A DNA stretch of 64,000 bases, from NCBI RefSeq assembly GCF_001677475.2, contig NZ_CP015229.1; one strand, given 5' to 3'. The notes under the pieces were generated by a model. That model saw only the letters and a list, made by a program, of their open reading frames with translations, had not been told where the DNA came from and did not search any database. Every line of letters starts with the position of its first letter. Position 1 is the stretch's first letter. Source of the DNA: Escherichia coli. GTDB lineage: Bacteria > Pseudomonadota > Gammaproteobacteria > Enterobacterales > Enterobacteriaceae. The translations under genes were made by a program, and so were the position numbers. Positions 8,379-15,566 of this stretch are shown piece by piece.

Positions 8379-8768
8379 ATGATTGACGCTCATGACTTCA
8401 CAAGATGGGTGCGCACACAGGACACCCGTCTGGCTCCCGTTCTTCAGGGATTATTTGATCTTTACATCCGTGGTCGTGACAACAGAGCACGCACTACAAA
8501 ACCGGAGAATGCGGACACCCTTTATTTCACAGTAGACGACTGCTACCGCGTGGACTTCACACCACACGGGCTGGCGTTGCACTGCCTGACACCACACGGC
8601 GAATCACTGCTGGCGTATTACGACTCCCCGGCCTCCGTATTTGCGGCAATGCTGGCGCATCGCACTGCTGGCGGGTGTGCCTCGCTGAGTGAATACACCG
8701 CTGAATTTAACCGCCTTTCCGCCATCTTCTCGCAGGAGTGGCAGCGCGTGACGGGATACCAGCCATGA
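8379..8768 (+). CDS. hypothetical protein; stop overlaps start of gene A
   Basis: 129-aa ORF; ATGA overlap at 8765-8768. Confidence 0.5.
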   Translation: MIDAHDFTRWVRTQDTRLAPVLQGLFDLYIRGRDNRARTTKPENADTLYFTVDDCYRVDFTPHGLALHCLTPHGESLLAYYDSPASVFAAMLAHRTAGGCASLSEYTAEFNRLSAIFSQEWQRVTGYQP

Positions 8769-11605
8769 GTGAGTTTGCATGGAGCTGGAATGAACCACGG
8801 CCAGCCATTGATCCGGCCAGATTTACGGAGCGCAGGCAGGAAACTGAAACCGACCTGCAACGCGCCATCCGTTACTACCTTGAGGCAGACAAAAGGGCAC
8901 AGGAAGAACAGGAAGCGAAGGAAGAAGCCTTTTTCGCACAATCCACCGTGGGTAAAAAACTCATGGCATCCCTTGAGGAAGCCGGACAGCGTGAAAAGCT
9001 GGCACAGAGCATCATCAGTAAGCGCCGGGCAACAGAACAAGACACGGTAGCCCGTGCCTTTGCCACACTAAAGGCACTACCTGTTTATCTGCGTGAACCA
9101 CTGAGCCGCCACCTCTCTTTCCTGCGCAAAAAACAGGAAGCCGATCGCCGGAAAGGCAAAAAGAGCTGGCAGGCGGAACGCTATGCACGCGGAACCCTGC
9201 GCAAAATATTCGAACGTCTGGACCGCACCGACAGCCGCTGGCTGACACCGGGTTATCGCGCCCTTGCCGGACGCGAACGCCTGGACGATTTGCTTTACCT
9301 GCCGCAGCTCAACAAACACCAGATACAGACGCTGGCCACCATGACAGCGGCGATGTTCAGCAGCACCTTCGAAAAACTCTGCGATGGCTTTGGCGCGACT
9401 GATGGCGAGCTGACCATGGATGTAACGCTGAAGGCGTATCAGATGCTGGCCCGCATGGCGTTACACCTGCACGCCATGCCTCCGCATTATGACGTACTGA
9501 CAACAGACAAAGACCGGAGGAACGAACCAGACACAGAACTGCTGCCGGGCGCAATCCTTCGCCTGACCTGTGCGGAATGGTGGAAACGCAAACTGTGGCT
9601 GTTACGTTGCGAGTGGCGGGAAGAACAACTCCGAGCCGCCTGTCTGGTTTCCAGAAAAACATCGCCCTATCTGAGCCAGGACGCGTTAAGCGAGTTTCGC
9701 GCACAGCGCGAGAAAACACGCGATTTCCTGAAAAGTTTCATGCTGGAAAATGAAGACGGGTTCACGATTGATCTCGAGACGGTGTATTACGCGGGAGTAA
9801 GTAACCCGGTTCACCGTAAGGCAGAAATGATGGCCACCATGAAGGGACTGGAACTTCTGGCCGAAGCCCGTGGCGACAGAGCGGTGTTTCTGACCGTCAC
9901 CTGCCCGTCAAAATACCACGCAACAACGGAGAACGGTCATCCGAACCCCAAATGGAACGGGGCCACCATGCGCGACTCCAGCGATTACCTGGTTAACACG
10001 TTTTTTGCGGCGGTCCGCAAAAAACTGAACCGCGACGGCCTGCGCTGGTATGGCATCCGCACGGTGGAGCCTCACCATGACGGCACTGTGCACTGGCATA
10101 TGATGGTCTTTGCACATCCGGACGAGATTGAAACCATCGTGTCCCACGTCTGCGATATTGCCATTCAGGAGGACCGCCACGAGCTGGGCGATGACATAAC
10201 TCCGCGTTTTAAGGCGGAGTATGTCGACGGCTCAAAAGGCACACCAACCAGCTACATCGCCACCTACATCGGAAAGAACTTGGACAGCCGCGCCGTGGAT
10301 GGCATCGACCCGAAAACGGGCAAGCCACGCGTTGACCACGAAACCGGAAAATCAATGGCCGAGAGCGTGGAGCGCGCCATCGGCTGGGCGCGCCTTCACC
10401 GGGTCCGTCAGTTCCAGTTCTTTGGCATCCCCTCCCGTCAGGTGTGGCGTGAACTGCGCCGCCTTGCCAGCCAGATGGCACGCAATCCGGAAGGCCCGCA
10501 ACGGCTGAAAGATGATGCAATGGATGCGGTACTCGCTGCCGCCGATGCCGGGTGTTTTGCCACCTACATTGAAAAACAGGGTGGCGTGCTTGTTCCACGC
10601 AAGGACTACCTGATTCGCACCGCCTACGACCTCGCAGATGAGCTGAACGATTACGGCGAACAGAGCGTACAGATTTACGGGATCTGGTCACCACTCATCG
10701 GGGAATCCTCCCGTGTGTGCACGCATCCGGATAACTGGAAGTTGGTAAGACGTAAACCAGAACCGGAAGACAACGCCCACGAAAATGGTTTTGACCTTCA
10801 GGGCGGCCCTGCCGCCCCTTGGACTCGTGGCAATAACTGTCCCCGTGTACAGGAAACGGACAATAACGGGACAGAACTGCCGGAAGAACGGCCAGCACCG
10901 TGGCCGCAGCTCCCTGACGGCGTTGAAGTGAACGAATGGATGCGCTCACTGAAACAGCACGAACGCCGGGCGCTGATGCGTTCGCTTCGTGACAAACAGG
11001 CAAAAAACAGCAGTGATGAAATGCAGAGCTGGACACAGAGCCGCAAACAGCAGCGGCCTTTGCCTGATAACCACGAATTACTCGCTAAAGAATGGCGGGA
11101 GTCTGCTGAATCTCTCGGCCTGCATATCGGTGAACAACAGATGCAGCACCTGTTACGGGGCGGCAGCCTGTACGTTGACGGCAGCATCATTGCACCGCAG
11201 GGATTTGAAATTGTACGCAAACCGGATACCCGCCCGGACAGCCGAATCACGCAGCTCTGGCAGCGCCTGAGCCGTAATCATGGCGTAAGCAGCACGGAGA
11301 TCCGCCATAACCCGGTCGCCAGCTATCTGGCACAGCTGGGGGCATCAGACCCTGAAGTCGCCGCACGCCTGGCATCCACACTTCAGCAGGACCAGAACAC
11401 CATGAAAACACCCGTTACCGTGCTTTCTGACATGCTGCGCGCCATCCGCGACGCAGAGCACGCACAGAGAATCAGTGAAACCACTGAACGCGCCCGCCGC
11501 AAAGCAGACCTGCTGCGGGGTGGCCTGACCAGTGGAAACAAAAAACAGACAGAAACGGGACTCATGAATCCCGTAAATGAGCAAAAAACGCGCAGCGATA
11601 TATGA
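8765..11605 (+). CDS. A: replication initiation endonuclease, P2 gpA-like (rolling-circle HUH nickase) with long C-terminal extension
   Basis: HUH-type motif in GTVHWHMMVFAHPD; position after early genes; 946 aa from ATG 8765. Confidence 0.85.
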   Translation: MSEFAWSWNEPRPAIDPARFTERRQETETDLQRAIRYYLEADKRAQEEQEAKEEAFFAQSTVGKKLMASLEEAGQREKLAQSIISKRRATEQDTVARAFATLKALPVYLREPLSRHLSFLRKKQEADRRKGKKSWQAERYARGTLRKIFERLDRTDSRWLTPGYRALAGRERLDDLLYLPQLNKHQIQTLATMTAAMFSSTFEKLCDGFGATDGELTMDVTLKAYQMLARMALHLHAMPPHYDVLTTDKDRRNEPDTELLPGAILRLTCAEWWKRKLWLLRCEWREEQLRAACLVSRKTSPYLSQDALSEFRAQREKTRDFLKSFMLENEDGFTIDLETVYYAGVSNPVHRKAEMMATMKGLELLAEARGDRAVFLTVTCPSKYHATTENGHPNPKWNGATMRDSSDYLVNTFFAAVRKKLNRDGLRWYGIRTVEPHHDGTVHWHMMVFAHPDEIETIVSHVCDIAIQEDRHELGDDITPRFKAEYVDGSKGTPTSYIATYIGKNLDSRAVDGIDPKTGKPRVDHETGKSMAESVERAIGWARLHRVRQFQFFGIPSRQVWRELRRLASQMARNPEGPQRLKDDAMDAVLAAADAGCFATYIEKQGGVLVPRKDYLIRTAYDLADELNDYGEQSVQIYGIWSPLIGESSRVCTHPDNWKLVRRKPEPEDNAHENGFDLQGGPAAPWTRGNNCPRVQETDNNGTELPEERPAPWPQLPDGVEVNEWMRSLKQHERRALMRSLRDKQAKNSSDEMQSWTQSRKQQRPLPDNHELLAKEWRESAESLGLHIGEQQMQHLLRGGSLYVDGSIIAPQGFEIVRKPDTRPDSRITQLWQRLSRNHGVSSTEIRHNPVASYLAQLGASDPEVAARLASTLQQDQNTMKTPVTVLSDMLRAIRDAEHAQRISETTERARRKADLLRGGLTSGNKKQTETGLMNPVNEQKTRSDI

Positions 11606-11681: not shown

Positions 11682-12641
11682 ATGAAAATTTGTATCGACG
11701 ACGGCTCCACCAACATCAAGCTGGCATGGACTGAGAACGGCGAACGCCGCAACGCCATCAGCCCGAACAGCTTCAAGTCGGAATGGTCTGCGCCGTTCGG
11801 TGGCACGCAGCCCGCGAACTACATGCTTGATGGCGTGCGCTATGGTTTTGATCCGGTCAGCGATCGCTTTGTCCAGACGACCGACACGCAATACCAGTAC
11901 AGCGATGTGAATGTCATTGCCATTCATCACGCGCTGGTCAAATCAGGCATCACGCCACAGGAGGTGGATGTGGTTGTCACCCTGCCACTGAGCGAGTATT
12001 TCGACACAAACGCACAGCCGGACATGGCCAACATCAACCGCAAAAAAGCGAACGTTATGCGCCCGGTGGAGTACCAGAACGGCGAAGCATTCACTATCCG
12101 TAACGTGCGGGTTATGCCTGAATCCATTCCGGCTGGCTTTAAGGCACTGGCTGACATGAGTCCGTTTGAATCCCTGCTGATTGTAGATTTGGGCGGAACC
12201 ACGCTGGATGTGGCAAAGGTTCAGGGGCAACTGGCAGGTATCAGCCAGGTGTTTTGCGATCCACACGTAGGCGTTTCTCTGATGGCCGATGCCGTACTGT
12301 CGGTGATGGCCACTAACGGTATGCGCACCAGTCACCACATCGCCAATACCATTATCGAACATCGCCATAATGAAGCCTGGCTGCGCCAGCACATCCACAA
12401 TGACGCGCATTACGCCAGCCTGATGGAGGTTATTCGTGAAAAGGAAGAAACACTGAAACAACGCGTGATCCGCGCGCTGGCGGGTTTTTCGGGTTACGGG
12501 CGGGTGATGGTTGTCGGTGGAGGGGCGGAGATTGTGGCACCCGCTATCCGCGAAGCCTGCGGAGTTCATGCGACTTTCATCGCGGACGGGGTGCCACAGT
12601 TTGCTCTGGTTAATGGGCTGTACGCAATGGACAAGGAGTAA
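11682..12641 (+). CDS. parM: actin-like segregation ATPase, ParM/StbA family
   Basis: 319 aa; motifs IDDGSTNIKL, ISPNSFK, VMPESIPAG, DLGGTTLD, GGGAE, VNGLY parallel plasmid R1 ParM as recalled. Confidence 0.8.
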   Translation: MKICIDDGSTNIKLAWTENGERRNAISPNSFKSEWSAPFGGTQPANYMLDGVRYGFDPVSDRFVQTTDTQYQYSDVNVIAIHHALVKSGITPQEVDVVVTLPLSEYFDTNAQPDMANINRKKANVMRPVEYQNGEAFTIRNVRVMPESIPAGFKALADMSPFESLLIVDLGGTTLDVAKVQGQLAGISQVFCDPHVGVSLMADAVLSVMATNGMRTSHHIANTIIEHRHNEAWLRQHIHNDAHYASLMEVIREKEETLKQRVIRALAGFSGYGRVMVVGGGAEIVAPAIREACGVHATFIADGVPQFALVNGLYAMDKE

Positions 12642-12645
12642 ACCA

Positions 12646-12957
12646 ATGACGACACCAACCAGACGGATAAGTTTCTATCTGAAGCCTGCGGCCGTCAAGA
12701 ACGAAAGCGAAGCATGCGCCTGGCTGGACAGCCTTACACCAGAAGCCCGCAAAAGCGGCCAACGCGTGGCTTTTCTGGCCGGGCTGGCACTTCTGAAAAT
12801 GAATCCGGCAGAGGCTTACCGACTGGCTGCATGGGCTGACGATGAGGCGTTATCAGTGACACAAACCAGGACAGAATGCCCCGCGTCACAGCCAGTATCA
12901 ACCGCACAGATAACCAGTCAGATGGCCGGAAATATCCGGGCGTTATTTCCCGAATAA
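12646..12957 (+). CDS. parR: ParR/StbB-like partition adaptor (DNA-binding)
   Basis: 103 aa directly after parM; RRISFYLKP...LDSLTPEARKS...AFLAGLALL and C-terminal NIRALFPE resemble R1 ParR as recalled. Confidence 0.65.
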   Translation: MTTPTRRISFYLKPAAVKNESEACAWLDSLTPEARKSGQRVAFLAGLALLKMNPAEAYRLAAWADDEALSVTQTRTECPASQPVSTAQITSQMAGNIRALFPE

Positions 12958-13020: not shown

Positions 13021-13356
13021 ATGCAACACATTGACAGAGAAAAAGCGCAGCGACTGATTGAGCGAATGGAAGCGCTGGCGAAAGAAGAAAATGTCAACAT
13101 CCAAAAAATAGCTGAATGTGGCCAGATAGTTCTTCGTCGTGAAAAAGACATCAAGCAACTGATGTCTGGCGAAATCAGCAAAACATGGACTTCAGGCAAG
13201 AAGACGATTTATTGCAGCTTCTGCAATAAATCCCAGCACGAAGTCATAAAGGTGATTGCCGGACCGTCTGTTTACATCTGCAATGAGTGCGTGGATTTGT
13301 GCAATGAAATTATCAGAAGAGAAGTGACAGACCATGAAGAAAAAACGCATGAATGA
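13021..13356 (+). CDS. stand-alone ClpX zinc-binding-domain (ZBD) homologue with unique N-terminal region
   Basis: 111 aa; segment [39 protein letters not shown] closely matches the E. coli ClpX N-terminal C4 zinc-finger as recalled; no AAA+ module follows. Confidence 0.75.
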
Positions 13357-13418
13357 CGAATTTGACGGCTTTTAATTTTATCGGGGCACACTGTCTCCCC
13401 CCGCACGAGGAAAACACG

Positions 13419-13943
13419 ATGAAAAAATACGAATACATGCTAATGAAAGAAGCACTGCGGGCTGGTCTGGCTCCCTGTCCTGTATCCGTAGAAGCTGTTG
13501 TTGGGAACACGATTTTCCGAACGCTGCGAAATCGCGTATCCGTGAAGATGATTCACCAACCACCCAAATCTACCAGCATGATCTATCTGCCGCTGCCCGA
13601 GGCTATCAAACTTATGCGTTCGCTGAAATTTGCGATTTGGATGCAGACACAACTCAACAAAGCGGTGCAAAACACCTTCGTTAAGAAACTGATGCCGGAG
13701 CTTGCTGCCAGATGTGCAAAATGTACCAGACCCGCACTTCAATTTGATCTGTCATTGATTCAACAAGCTACGGAGGCAGAACTGTACCGCCTGTCACCTC
13801 TCCATGATGTTCACACGGAAGCCTCAGAAATGTTCCGGCTCATGTTTCAATTTAATTTTGCCGTTCGACGCACACGCGTTCAGGTCAATCGCATGATGCA
13901 GGCGCAGGAAGAGCTGACGCAACACAAAGGAGGCAACCAGTGA
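13419..13943 (+). CDS. hypothetical protein (cargo, gene A-proximal hotspot)
   Basis: 174-aa ORF from ATG 13419 with RBS; stop overlaps next start. Confidence 0.55.
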   Translation: MKKYEYMLMKEALRAGLAPCPVSVEAVVGNTIFRTLRNRVSVKMIHQPPKSTSMIYLPLPEAIKLMRSLKFAIWMQTQLNKAVQNTFVKKLMPELAARCAKCTRPALQFDLSLIQQATEAELYRLSPLHDVHTEASEMFRLMFQFNFAVRRTRVQVNRMMQAQEELTQHKGGNQ

Positions 13944-14464
13944 GCAAGATTGACTATCAGGCATTACGCGAACGCTATTCACCTGCGCCAGTACCGAAAT
14001 GCCCTATTTGCGGCGAGGAAATGTCAATTCAGCGAATATCTGGAGCACAGGTTGTTTATGCCTGCTCCGGTTATGGTGATGATGGAGATTTCAAAATTGG
14101 TCGAACTCTTGCCGACGAACATTATGAAAAATCGCGCGTAACAGTGTTGGATGTCGGGGATCCTGAAGTATTGGCGCTACTTGATTGGCTGGAAACTAAA
14201 GACAACCGAATCGCTGAACTGGAAAAAATCGCCACTGACTATGCACTTAAATTCCAGAAAGCACAGGACGCATTAAAGCATGCCGCTTTGCTGCATAGCC
14301 GGACGGCGCAACAAACAAATAATTTTGCAGTATCGCTTCCGGACATAAGCGAATATTTCATTAATGACGTATTTCAGCCCTTGCGATACGAGCGGGATGT
14401 TGAAAGAGCCATCATAAAGGCTGGCGGAAAAGCATTGTGGCAGGAGAAACACGACGACAGATAA
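13940..14464 (+). CDS. hypothetical protein with N-terminal CxxC...C zinc-ribbon-like motif
   Basis: 174-aa ORF ATGA-coupled to previous gene; CPICGEEM...YACSGYG. Confidence 0.55.
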   Translation: MSKIDYQALRERYSPAPVPKCPICGEEMSIQRISGAQVVYACSGYGDDGDFKIGRTLADEHYEKSRVTVLDVGDPEVLALLDWLETKDNRIAELEKIATDYALKFQKAQDALKHAALLHSRTAQQTNNFAVSLPDISEYFINDVFQPLRYERDVERAIIKAGGKALWQEKHDDR

Positions 14465-15041
14465 AAATAACACCTGATCTCCCTCAAACCAGGGCGATAA
14501 TCGCGCATCGCCCTGCTGCACAATAGTGCACAAATTTGCACAATTTTTTTGAACGACTTTTTGCCCTTCCGGCCCGCGTGGCGGCTGGATCCGTCAAGGA
14601 TCCGTGCGTGCACAAAAAAACGCGTTTTTTCTGCGCGCAGGTGACGGGGGAACAGCCCGCGTTTCAGGGGGTAAATAGCGTTCCCTTAACGATGTCGCAG
14701 CGACACGACAGAATGGCCGTATCGCTCACGCTGAGCGTGAAAAATACGTGAGGGATTCTGATTTGATGGGGTGAAAGGTAAGGCCGTCAAAATCGCACTG
14801 AGGCGGCGAGAACATGCAGTCAGCGCGGTGGGATTGTGTAGAGTCTGGCCGTCGATGATAGCGATAAGTCGGAAGATGTCGTGAAATTATCTGATTGATA
14901 CGGGAGCTGGAGAGCCGGGGCATAAATTTTTTATGCCCCGGCGAAGCAGCAGACAAGCGAAGCGCGTCAGTGATGCGGCACCTTGCCGACCACACTTCAT
15001 AAGTGCAAAATACGAGCAAAGAAATCAATGGAGGCTGTTTT

Positions 15042-15566
15042 ATGGTCATTAATTACAAGCAGTTACGAGAAAAACGAGAGCAGGTAAAGGAAAGTTTTCG
15101 CCGCAATGAAGATCTGACCCCGCTTGTACACCTTGCCCAGGGAATTGTTGATGCTTATGAAATCTCTCTGGAGCTGCCATCACAGACATGGACGGATAGC
15201 GACGGTAATCGCCAGCATTACGTTTCATGCGGACTGGAAACAACTGAAGGGTTTCGCAGAATGCCTTTATCTCAGATTCCTGCCGCTACCCCCAAAGCAA
15301 GGGGCGGCAATGATGAGCGAAAACTGATTTTCAGCATTGAGACAGTGGTTGACGACACACCTGGCGAAGTCGCGTTCGTGCATACTCCTCTTTCGATCGC
15401 AATGTATAACGATGAAATACAGGTTCGCGTTAATAATAATATCGTGCCACTTAAAGAAGGTAATTCACCATACACCACCGTTTGTGAAGCCATTCAATAT
15501 TACGTTCTCTCTGAAATTGATAATCTCAAGCCTGACGGCACCCAGAAAATGGTTCAACTCTGGTAA
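15042..15566 (+). CDS. hypothetical protein between cos region and portal gene
   Basis: 174-aa ORF convergent with Q; the ORF-track alternative start is 15003. Confidence 0.5.
   Translation: MVINYKQLREKREQVKESFRRNEDLTPLVHLAQGIVDAYEISLELPSQTWTDSDGNRQHYVSCGLETTEGFRRMPLSQIPAATPKARGGNDERKLIFSIETVVDDTPGEVAFVHTPLSIAMYNDEIQVRVNNNIVPLKEGNSPYTTVCEAIQYYVLSEIDNLKPDGTQKMVQLW

Follow-up and report, generated by a model that had tools for sequence, protein, structure and literature searches.

Two adjacent genes of 174 aa each, at the cos-proximal end of a P2-family prophage in Escherichia coli, are separable cassettes and not an obligate pair. The second is an ordinary member of the large known Ead/Ea22-like family in a less usual host phage, and the first, here called orfA, is a real orphan gene under purifying selection. 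Both were found in a window of 64,000 nucleotides (the whole stretch of DNA that was analysed, from contig NZ_CP015229.1 of assembly GCF_001677475.2), and the original prediction had treated them as a translationally coupled pair, neither member of which was recognised, at a site where P2-like phages typically carry anti-phage cargo. The explanation that we prefer, and to which we give an even chance, is that the early transcription unit ends in two accessory cassettes ('morons') that are independent of each other, one encoding an Ea22-like oligomeric scaffold that would tune the choice between lysis and lysogeny and the other an unrelated basic protein. The change to current knowledge is small: a named accessory family gains one member, the other gene is a rare orphan, and their arrangement had already been catalogued.

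The P2 old/tin hotspot is the interval beside cos that is bounded by the gpA-type replication gene and the portal gene gpQ (Rousset et al. 2022, PMC9122126). Its residents include old, tin, retrons, PARIS and other systems, and about one-third of the cloned systems were protective (PMC9122126). Cargo unrelated to defence is also found there, including ParMR and a cytolethal distending toxin, and a partition system occupies the hotspot in about one-quarter of P2-like phages (Rousset et al. 2022, PMC9122126). The exact arrangement and locus described here are already in the published catalogue, in Table S5A of Rousset et al. 2022, which lists StbA, Plasmid_stab_B, zf-C4_ClpX, the hypothetical protein WP_022631071, the Ead_Ea22 protein WP_022631072 and a further hypothetical protein. 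The main text of that paper describes no test of this arrangement and reports no defence phenotype for it. Within the literature that we searched, no paper's main text mentions the accession numbers of the two proteins, and no link was found between Ea22-like proteins and defence.

Setting of the two genes

The surrounding genes identify the setting as a P88-like prophage (Xuanwuvirus, Peduoviridae; P2 family). The gene order begins with a 955-aa GpA-type replication endonuclease (8738-11605) and continues with ParM and ParR (11682-12957) and a gene that encodes only a ClpX zinc-binding domain (ClpX-ZBD, 13021-13356, plus strand). The latter is optional 5' of orfA: in the L012, L013 and L019 locus types it is absent and ParR lies directly upstream. 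orfA (13419-13943) and the Ead/Ea22-like gene (13940-14464) follow, both on the plus strand, and the two predicted reading frames of about 174 aa proved exact and to be real genes. Downstream lies a terminator-like hairpin followed by seven T (14526-14551, plus strand; a consensus match only), which would end the rightward transcription unit. Because the linear record of phage P88_4B11 stops at the equivalent of window position 14561, we place cos there, approximately (14555-14580, around 14561), about 100 nt past the Ea22-like stop codon. A phrog_5091 ORF (15003-15566) lies beyond cos, followed by the portal and large terminase genes on the minus strand.

This layout agrees with the predicted position between the ClpX-ZBD gene and the cos region, with cos itself placed from the end of P88_4B11, and with the proposed equivalence to the P2 tin/old hotspot: the gpA-gpQ gene order is present, the site is adjacent to cos, and its cargo varies among related phages. 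P88, PhiR44_2 and P88_4B11 carry other cargo at the same site. Of 5,426 complete E. coli genomes, 28 have orfA, in every case within the gpA-gpQ hotspot, and 1,306 have the adjacent ParMR genes. GC content is lower in both cassettes (46-49%) than in the phage core (53-57%).

In their position beside cos, variable occupancy and low GC, the two genes thus resemble the known cargo of the P2 old/tin hotspot. They differ from it in that the pair resembles neither Old nor Tin nor any PADLOC model (a search of PADLOC-DB with both proteins and their neighbours returned 0 families at E<=1), and in that it is co-oriented with the early operon and its own promoter is undetected. A simple consensus scan upstream of the pair, of a kind that can miss real promoters, found none; like P2 tin and old, the pair may be expressed in the lysogen despite this empty scan.

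The second gene encodes an Ead/Ea22-like protein

The product of the second gene matches PF13935 (Ead_Ea22) with an E value of 1.3e-32 over residues 2-140, covering model positions 1-134 of 139, and matches phrog_368 with an E value of 7.6e-31. Identical copies carry the RefSeq label 'ead/Ea22-like family protein'. The statement that neither protein could be recognised therefore holds for orfA only, for which no family or fold match was obtained.

Homologues of the second protein form more than 500 clusters, in Escherichia, Shigella and Salmonella, and are modular: an invariant tag, MS[KE]I[DN]YQALRE, is followed by an N-domain, a hinge (LALLD.LE), a coiled coil and a C-terminal domain. The N-domains are of at least four unrelated types and the C-terminal domains of dozens. 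In the protein studied here the N-domain covers aa 1-72, the coiled coil aa 75-123 (14162-14308) and the C-terminal domain aa ~130-174. The AF2 model (pLDDT 67) predicts, in order, an N-domain that contains a beta-hairpin (aa 6-70), one helix spanning residues 75-123 and, at 136-160, a small alpha/beta C-terminal domain; this predicted three-part architecture fits the published plan of lambda Ea22, which is likewise three-part and is tetrameric (PMC10834534).

The N-terminal cysteine motif that had been described as zinc-ribbon-like is present, as C21-x2-C24 and C42, and is accompanied by H61. A Cys/His N-domain with the pattern C-x2-C-G-[DEK]-E-M is found in 83 of 120 homologues among the matches listed; C21, C24, C42 and H61 are conserved in these 83, and some relatives have a fourth cysteine. 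All Pfam zinc-ribbon models score below threshold (E 0.02-0.44) and the AF2 model of the N-domain is of low confidence. Zinc binding is thus a plausible, putative property of this domain.

The C-terminal domain, FINDVFQPLRYERDVERAIIKAGGK, gives only noise at E<=10 against PDB sequences, with no match to the C-terminal domain of lambda Ea22, and a Foldseek search of the PDB with the model returns nothing significant. Since C-terminal domains are known from the literature to differ between members, the absence of a lambda-type domain is still compatible with family membership.

Lambda and Phi24B supply the studied members of the family, which are expressed early and act as pro-lysogenic modulators, not as exclusion genes (PMC7093339, PMC10834534). 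In both phages ea22 is an early gene of the pL operon; mutants that lack it have a shorter latency and a larger burst, and give lower host survival and fewer lysogens (PMC7093339). The Ea22 phenotype is known from lambdoid phages with C-terminal domains other than the one found here. With lambda Ea22 and P22 Ead the second gene shares the tag, the LALLD hinge, the coiled coil and an exchangeable C-terminal domain, as well as the status of non-essential accessory cargo of a temperate phage. It differs from lambda Ea22 in lying at a cos-proximal P2-family hotspot instead of the exo-xis region of a lambdoid phage, in having a Cys/His zinc-ribbon-like insert as its N-domain, and in a C-terminal domain that is unrelated by sequence to the lambda domain solved by NMR. 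Unlike many members of the Ead/Ea22 family, it is also without the common ...AGIRIKGE C-terminus.

The first gene is an orphan

Homologues of orfA are of conserved length and show 45-98% identity; pairwise dN/dS values are 0.2-0.4. Its ATG at 13419 is preceded by an AGGA Shine-Dalgarno sequence 8 nt upstream. An ATG at 13353, which forms an ATGA overlap with the ClpX-ZBD stop codon, is in frame with orfA in the window and would give an ORF of 196 aa; in close relatives a 2-nt indel breaks this frame. Because the frame from ATG 13353 is not conserved in relatives, we take ATG 13419 as the start of orfA and 13351-13418 (plus strand) as its non-coding leader.

The protein has no match in Pfam (searched with the single sequence and with every family member), PHROGs, NCBIfam, PADLOC or the PDB. 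Only 8 clusters of homologues were found among 5.8 billion, and an exhaustive profile search returned 3 representatives among 1.84 billion. A set of 100,044 species, each represented by one genome, contains none, and neither do 50,697 phage records; among plasmids, a single Salmonella record carries the gene. In an AF2 model (pLDDT 72.8) helices predominate and a long helical hairpin lies at the C-terminus; fold searches with this model recover only generic helical hairpins from the PDB and only orfA itself from AFDB50. We also considered that orfA could be a diverged Ea22 paralogue, and rejected this at an hhalign probability of only 0.3%.

The first 36 nt of the leader (13351-13386) carry 0-2 mismatches across the 30 orfA loci fetched, whatever the upstream gene, and are near-invariant even at loci where the orfA protein falls to 45% identity. 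The leader as a whole (13351-13418) has no promoter-like site, no Rfam hit, no stable RNA fold (z = +1.4) and no covariation. Four further contigs retain the leader and the initial ~20 orfA codons, and nothing more of the gene.

The genes are joined by a recurrent junction

The Ea22-like gene starts at GTG 13940, seven bases past a GGAGG (13929-13933), and the orfA stop codon overlaps this start. The predicted stop-start overlap is thus real and is 4 nt long, but it reads GTGA (13940-13943) and not ATGA. The module junction (13925-13972, plus strand) consists of the five codons (KGGNQ) at the end of orfA, in which the GGAGG lies, then GTGA, and then the Ea22 N-terminal tag SKIDYQALRE.

This junction, AAAGGAGGCAACCAGTGAGCAAGATTGACTATCAGGC, is 93.8% identical to about 160 records of Stx and lambdoid phages. 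In phage P13374 (ORF15/ORF14) the same junction joins two tandem Ea22-like genes, the upstream one of which also ends in KGGNQ and a stop. The tandem Ea22-like arrays of Stx and lambdoid phages, represented by P13374, resemble the locus in this junction, in which the KGGNQ end overlaps the next GTG start, and in that DNA methyltransferase cassettes also occur in them. They differ in the upstream gene, which here is orfA, a gene unrelated to Ea22 and absent from the phage records searched.

Because the junction recurs in Stx and lambdoid phages, the coupling is a property of the Ea22 5' end and is no evidence of joint function. Judged from the sequence, it belongs to the Ea22 5' module, and the junction is the boundary at which cassettes swap. 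The Ea22 5' end would bring its own GGAGG and start codon, such that any upstream gene would read through to a stop and produce the GTGA coupling. The wider point is that cassettes appear to be exchanged via the same short junction that gives the coupling; since swapping uses this junction, adjacency and overlap in such arrays are not evidence for a functional system.

The two genes are separable

The same pair does recur in other P2-like prophages, and in some of them it is broken; strains ETEC4090 and CFS3292 have the locus at 99.8-99.9% identity. Full-length Ea22-like genes, with either of two N-domain types, accompany orfA in 22 of the 28 orfA-bearing E. coli genomes; the remaining six carry a 28-codon Ea22 stump, followed by a gene for a 197-aa protein and a gene for a YafO-family toxin. 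In IMG/VR (n = 20 loci), 12 loci have a full-length Ea22-like partner, with three N-domain types, two have an Ea22 stump and one is cut by the contig end. Four more (L031-33 and L038) carry orfA beside unrelated genes of 79 aa and 61 aa with no Ea22 gene. In the last, L024, a DNA methyltransferase cassette (phrog_954) stands between orfA and the Ea22-like gene; this cassette ends in ...EGNQ and a stop, with the GTGA overlap and the same junction at both of its ends. An intact orfA accompanies the 28-aa stump in L012, L021 and L030 and, in total, in six E. coli genomes; the most distant orfA (L006, 45% identity) has a TAATG overlap to an Ea22 stump of 38 aa.

The separation is also seen from the other side. 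Matches to a query spanning both genes occur in 892 E. coli genomes, versus 28 for orfA alone, and P88_4B11 has an Ea22-like gene without orfA at the same site. Because orfA occurs without a full Ea22-like gene and Ea22-like genes occur mostly without orfA, the two do not form an obligate unit. The obligate co-occurrence by which a type II toxin-antitoxin pair is judged is likewise absent, given L006, L012, L021, L030, L031-33 and L038 on one side and Ea22-like genes without orfA in hundreds of genomes on the other.

The association is not entirely loose. A full-length partner is found at 22 of 28 E. coli loci and at 12 of 19 informative IMG/VR loci and, when present, it is always of the same subtype of coiled coil and C-terminal domain. 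This pairing of orfA with one Ea22 subtype exceeds what random assortment would give and may reflect some functional link. The pairing of a basic orfA product (pI 10.0) with an acidic Ea22-like protein (pI 5.3) would suit a complex.

Function and alternative explanations

The preferred explanation places both cassettes last in the rightward early/replication transcription unit, just before the terminator-like site and cos. We read them as early-operon accessory genes because there is no promoter-like site upstream, a terminator-like site downstream, no PADLOC hit and a low cassette GC. The Ea22-like protein, with its conserved tag, exchangeable Cys/His N-domain, a coiled coil that is probably oligomerising and an exchangeable C-terminal domain, would, by analogy with lambda and Phi24B, most likely act early after infection or induction and slow lytic development, and this slowing would favour host survival and lysogeny. 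The orfA product would be a separate small basic helical protein, carried as a passenger in the same array. The explanation builds on the observed family membership, modular anatomy, separability and common junction; the timing of expression, the oligomerisation and the pro-lysogenic effect of the Ea22-like protein are inferred.

An unlikely alternative is that both are counter-defence or host-takeover genes that aid lytic growth of the P88-like phage, with the Ea22 scaffold presenting an exchangeable inhibitor domain and orfA acting as a further inhibitor, aimed at an immunity protein of the host or of a prophage. An orphan DNA methyltransferase, which is classic anti-restriction cargo, is spliced into the same array with identical junctions, the location is in an early operon with no promoter detected, and the N- and C-domains are highly exchangeable, as an arms race would predict. 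A 2026 preprint (10.64898/2026.07.10.737580) reports that fusions between the anti-OLD protein Oad2/EaE and EaD/Ea22 proteins can occur, and modular early loci are proposed there as reservoirs of anti-immunity genes. However, neither protein has homology to known anti-defence proteins, and the measured Ea22 phenotype dampens lytic growth rather than promoting it.

The anti-phage function suggested by the location would be that of a two-gene system for superinfection exclusion or abortive infection, in which one protein senses phage and the other is the effector. We find this improbable. The hotspot hosts old, tin, retrons and PARIS, and about one-third of the systems cloned from it protected (PMC9122126); rare and patchy occupancy, low GC and tight coupling would all fit, and a YafO-toxin module is among the neighbouring cargo in relatives. 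Against this, no PADLOC model matches, no enzymatic or effector domain can be recognised in either protein, each gene is found without the other, and their own promoter is undetected. The studied Ea22 members are early developmental modulators, and the hotspot also holds ParMR and a cytolethal distending toxin (PMC9122126).

A more specific form, in which orfA and this Ea22 subtype make up a new two-component module for abortive infection or exclusion at the cos hotspot of P2-family phages and the partner-less loci are its decay products, is highly improbable. If true, it would be the first defence-related role for the large Ea22 family.

A possible link to a YafO-associated family

In L012 the gene after the Ea22 stump encodes a 197-aa protein (WP_000095653.1 and relatives). 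This protein belongs to an unannotated family with a signal-peptide-like N-terminus, and has in common with orfA the motif YLP[LI]xEA. Its gene is always directly 5' of a PF13957 YafO toxin gene, at prophage cargo sites in E. coli, Buttiauxella, Erwinia and Serratia. An hhalign comparison of the orfA family with the 197-aa family gives a probability of 90-91% and an E value of 1e-6 over 60 collinear columns, covering orfA residues 2-75. The score is 46.1, compared with a maximum of 24.6 in 100 column shuffles; for the YLP[LI]xEA region without the first 25 residues it is 32, compared with a maximum of 18.5. A shared N-terminal domain is possible on this similarity, and is not evidence that orfA is an antitoxin.

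That the two genes form a toxin-antitoxin-like module, with orfA as upstream antitoxin or regulator and the Ea22-like protein as the growth-slowing component, is very improbable indeed: the resemblance of the N-terminal ~75 residues of orfA to a family found upstream of YafO toxins, the retention of orfA where the downstream gene is lost (tolerable for an antitoxin) and the slowing of phage and host events by Ea22 would agree with it, but the similarity is short and the alignments shallow, the signal-peptide-like N-terminus of the 197-aa protein means that the match may partly reflect composition, any antitoxin role of that protein would itself be putative, the charge pattern, with a basic product upstream and an acidic one downstream, is the reverse of what is usual, Ea22-like genes are plentiful in genomes that lack orfA, as a toxin gene could not be, and no Pfam or NCBIfam toxin-antitoxin family matches either protein.

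Independently of such a role, the 197-aa family resembles orfA in its occurrence at the same hotspot in related prophages, its similar size and its helical C-terminal part. It differs in that the C-terminal two-thirds are unrelated, the partner is a YafO toxin and not Ea22, and the N-terminus is signal-peptide-like. The possible common N-terminal domain offers a testable handle on two uncharacterised families of the hotspot.

Cassette insertion at the GGAGG/GTGA junction, the stop/start overlap at which orfA (13419-13943, plus strand) meets the downstream Ea22-like gene (13940-14464, plus strand; GTGA at 13940-13943), is clearly illustrated by the related locus L024. Here a 161-aa DNA methyltransferase cassette (phrog_954; L024 2794-3279) lies between orfA and the Ea22-like gene, its product ends in ...EGNQ*, and an identical GGAGG/GTGA junction is found on either side of it. 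Among the 120 listed homologues of the window's Ea22-like protein (P0010-P0129), most lambdoid members end in ...AGIRIKGE*, whichever C-terminal domain they carry, and this end is a second conserved cassette boundary, on the 3' side. In contrast to most lambdoid Ea22-like proteins, the window's protein lacks it. In phages P88 (L003 3351-3689) and PhiR44_2 (L004 3349-3663), the cargo gene that follows the ClpX-ZBD gene encodes a product of 105-113 aa whose C-terminal part (…AWKDAVDWVLKEACQ.VN.GIKGE) matches a C-terminal domain that some Ea22-like proteins carry. This cargo protein represents a C-terminal domain of the Ea22 type that has neither the N-terminus nor the coiled coil of Ea22.

Upstream, orfA has a non-coding leader of 36 nt (13351-13386; GAATGACGAATTTGACGGCTTTTAATTTTATCGGGG), which contains TGACG twice, the copies being 9 nt apart. 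It is present with 0-2 mismatches in all 30 of 30 orfA loci, despite identities of the orfA protein down to 45% and irrespective of the upstream gene. Searches of the leader found no promoter-like site, Rfam match, stable fold or covariation. An ATG at 13353 forms an ATGA overlap with the stop codon of the ClpX-ZBD gene (13354-13356) and, in the orfA frame, opens a 196-aa ORF within the window. The matching start was chosen by one gene caller for a relative (P0003, 195 aa), and a 2-nt indel in loci L012 and L013 breaks the frame between this ATG and orfA.

A conserved two-gene module, in which an unannotated protein of 197 aa precedes a YafO-family toxin (PF13957), was observed in L012 (3198-4181; E. 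coli DSM 103246) and further in L014, L015/L016 and L018, at prophage cargo sites of E. coli, Buttiauxella, Erwinia and Serratia. Within the module, the 197-aa protein holds the position of the antitoxin at twice the usual size, has a signal-peptide-like N-terminus, and resembles orfA over its first ~72 residues (hhalign probability ~90%).

The window's chromosomally integrated P2-family prophage carries a ParM/ParR plasmid-partition pair (11682-12957), with matches in approximately 1,300 of 5,426 complete E. coli genomes. The reason for its retention in a phage that integrates is a puzzle also raised by Rousset et al. 2022 (PMC9122126). The adjacent gene (13021-13356), found in some hotspot variants and missing from others, encodes a 111-aa protein made up of an N-terminal helical part and, from ClpX, the C4 zinc-binding domain alone (phrog_6797; TIGR00382 residues 6-53); it could act by titrating adaptors or substrates of ClpX. 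A 187-aa ORF (phrog_5091; 15003-15566) separates cos from the portal gene. The segment comprising cos and this ORF occurs in approximately 400 E. coli genomes, whereas the annotation of the otherwise near-identical ETEC4090 locus shows no phrog_5091 gene and a gap ~600 nt shorter.
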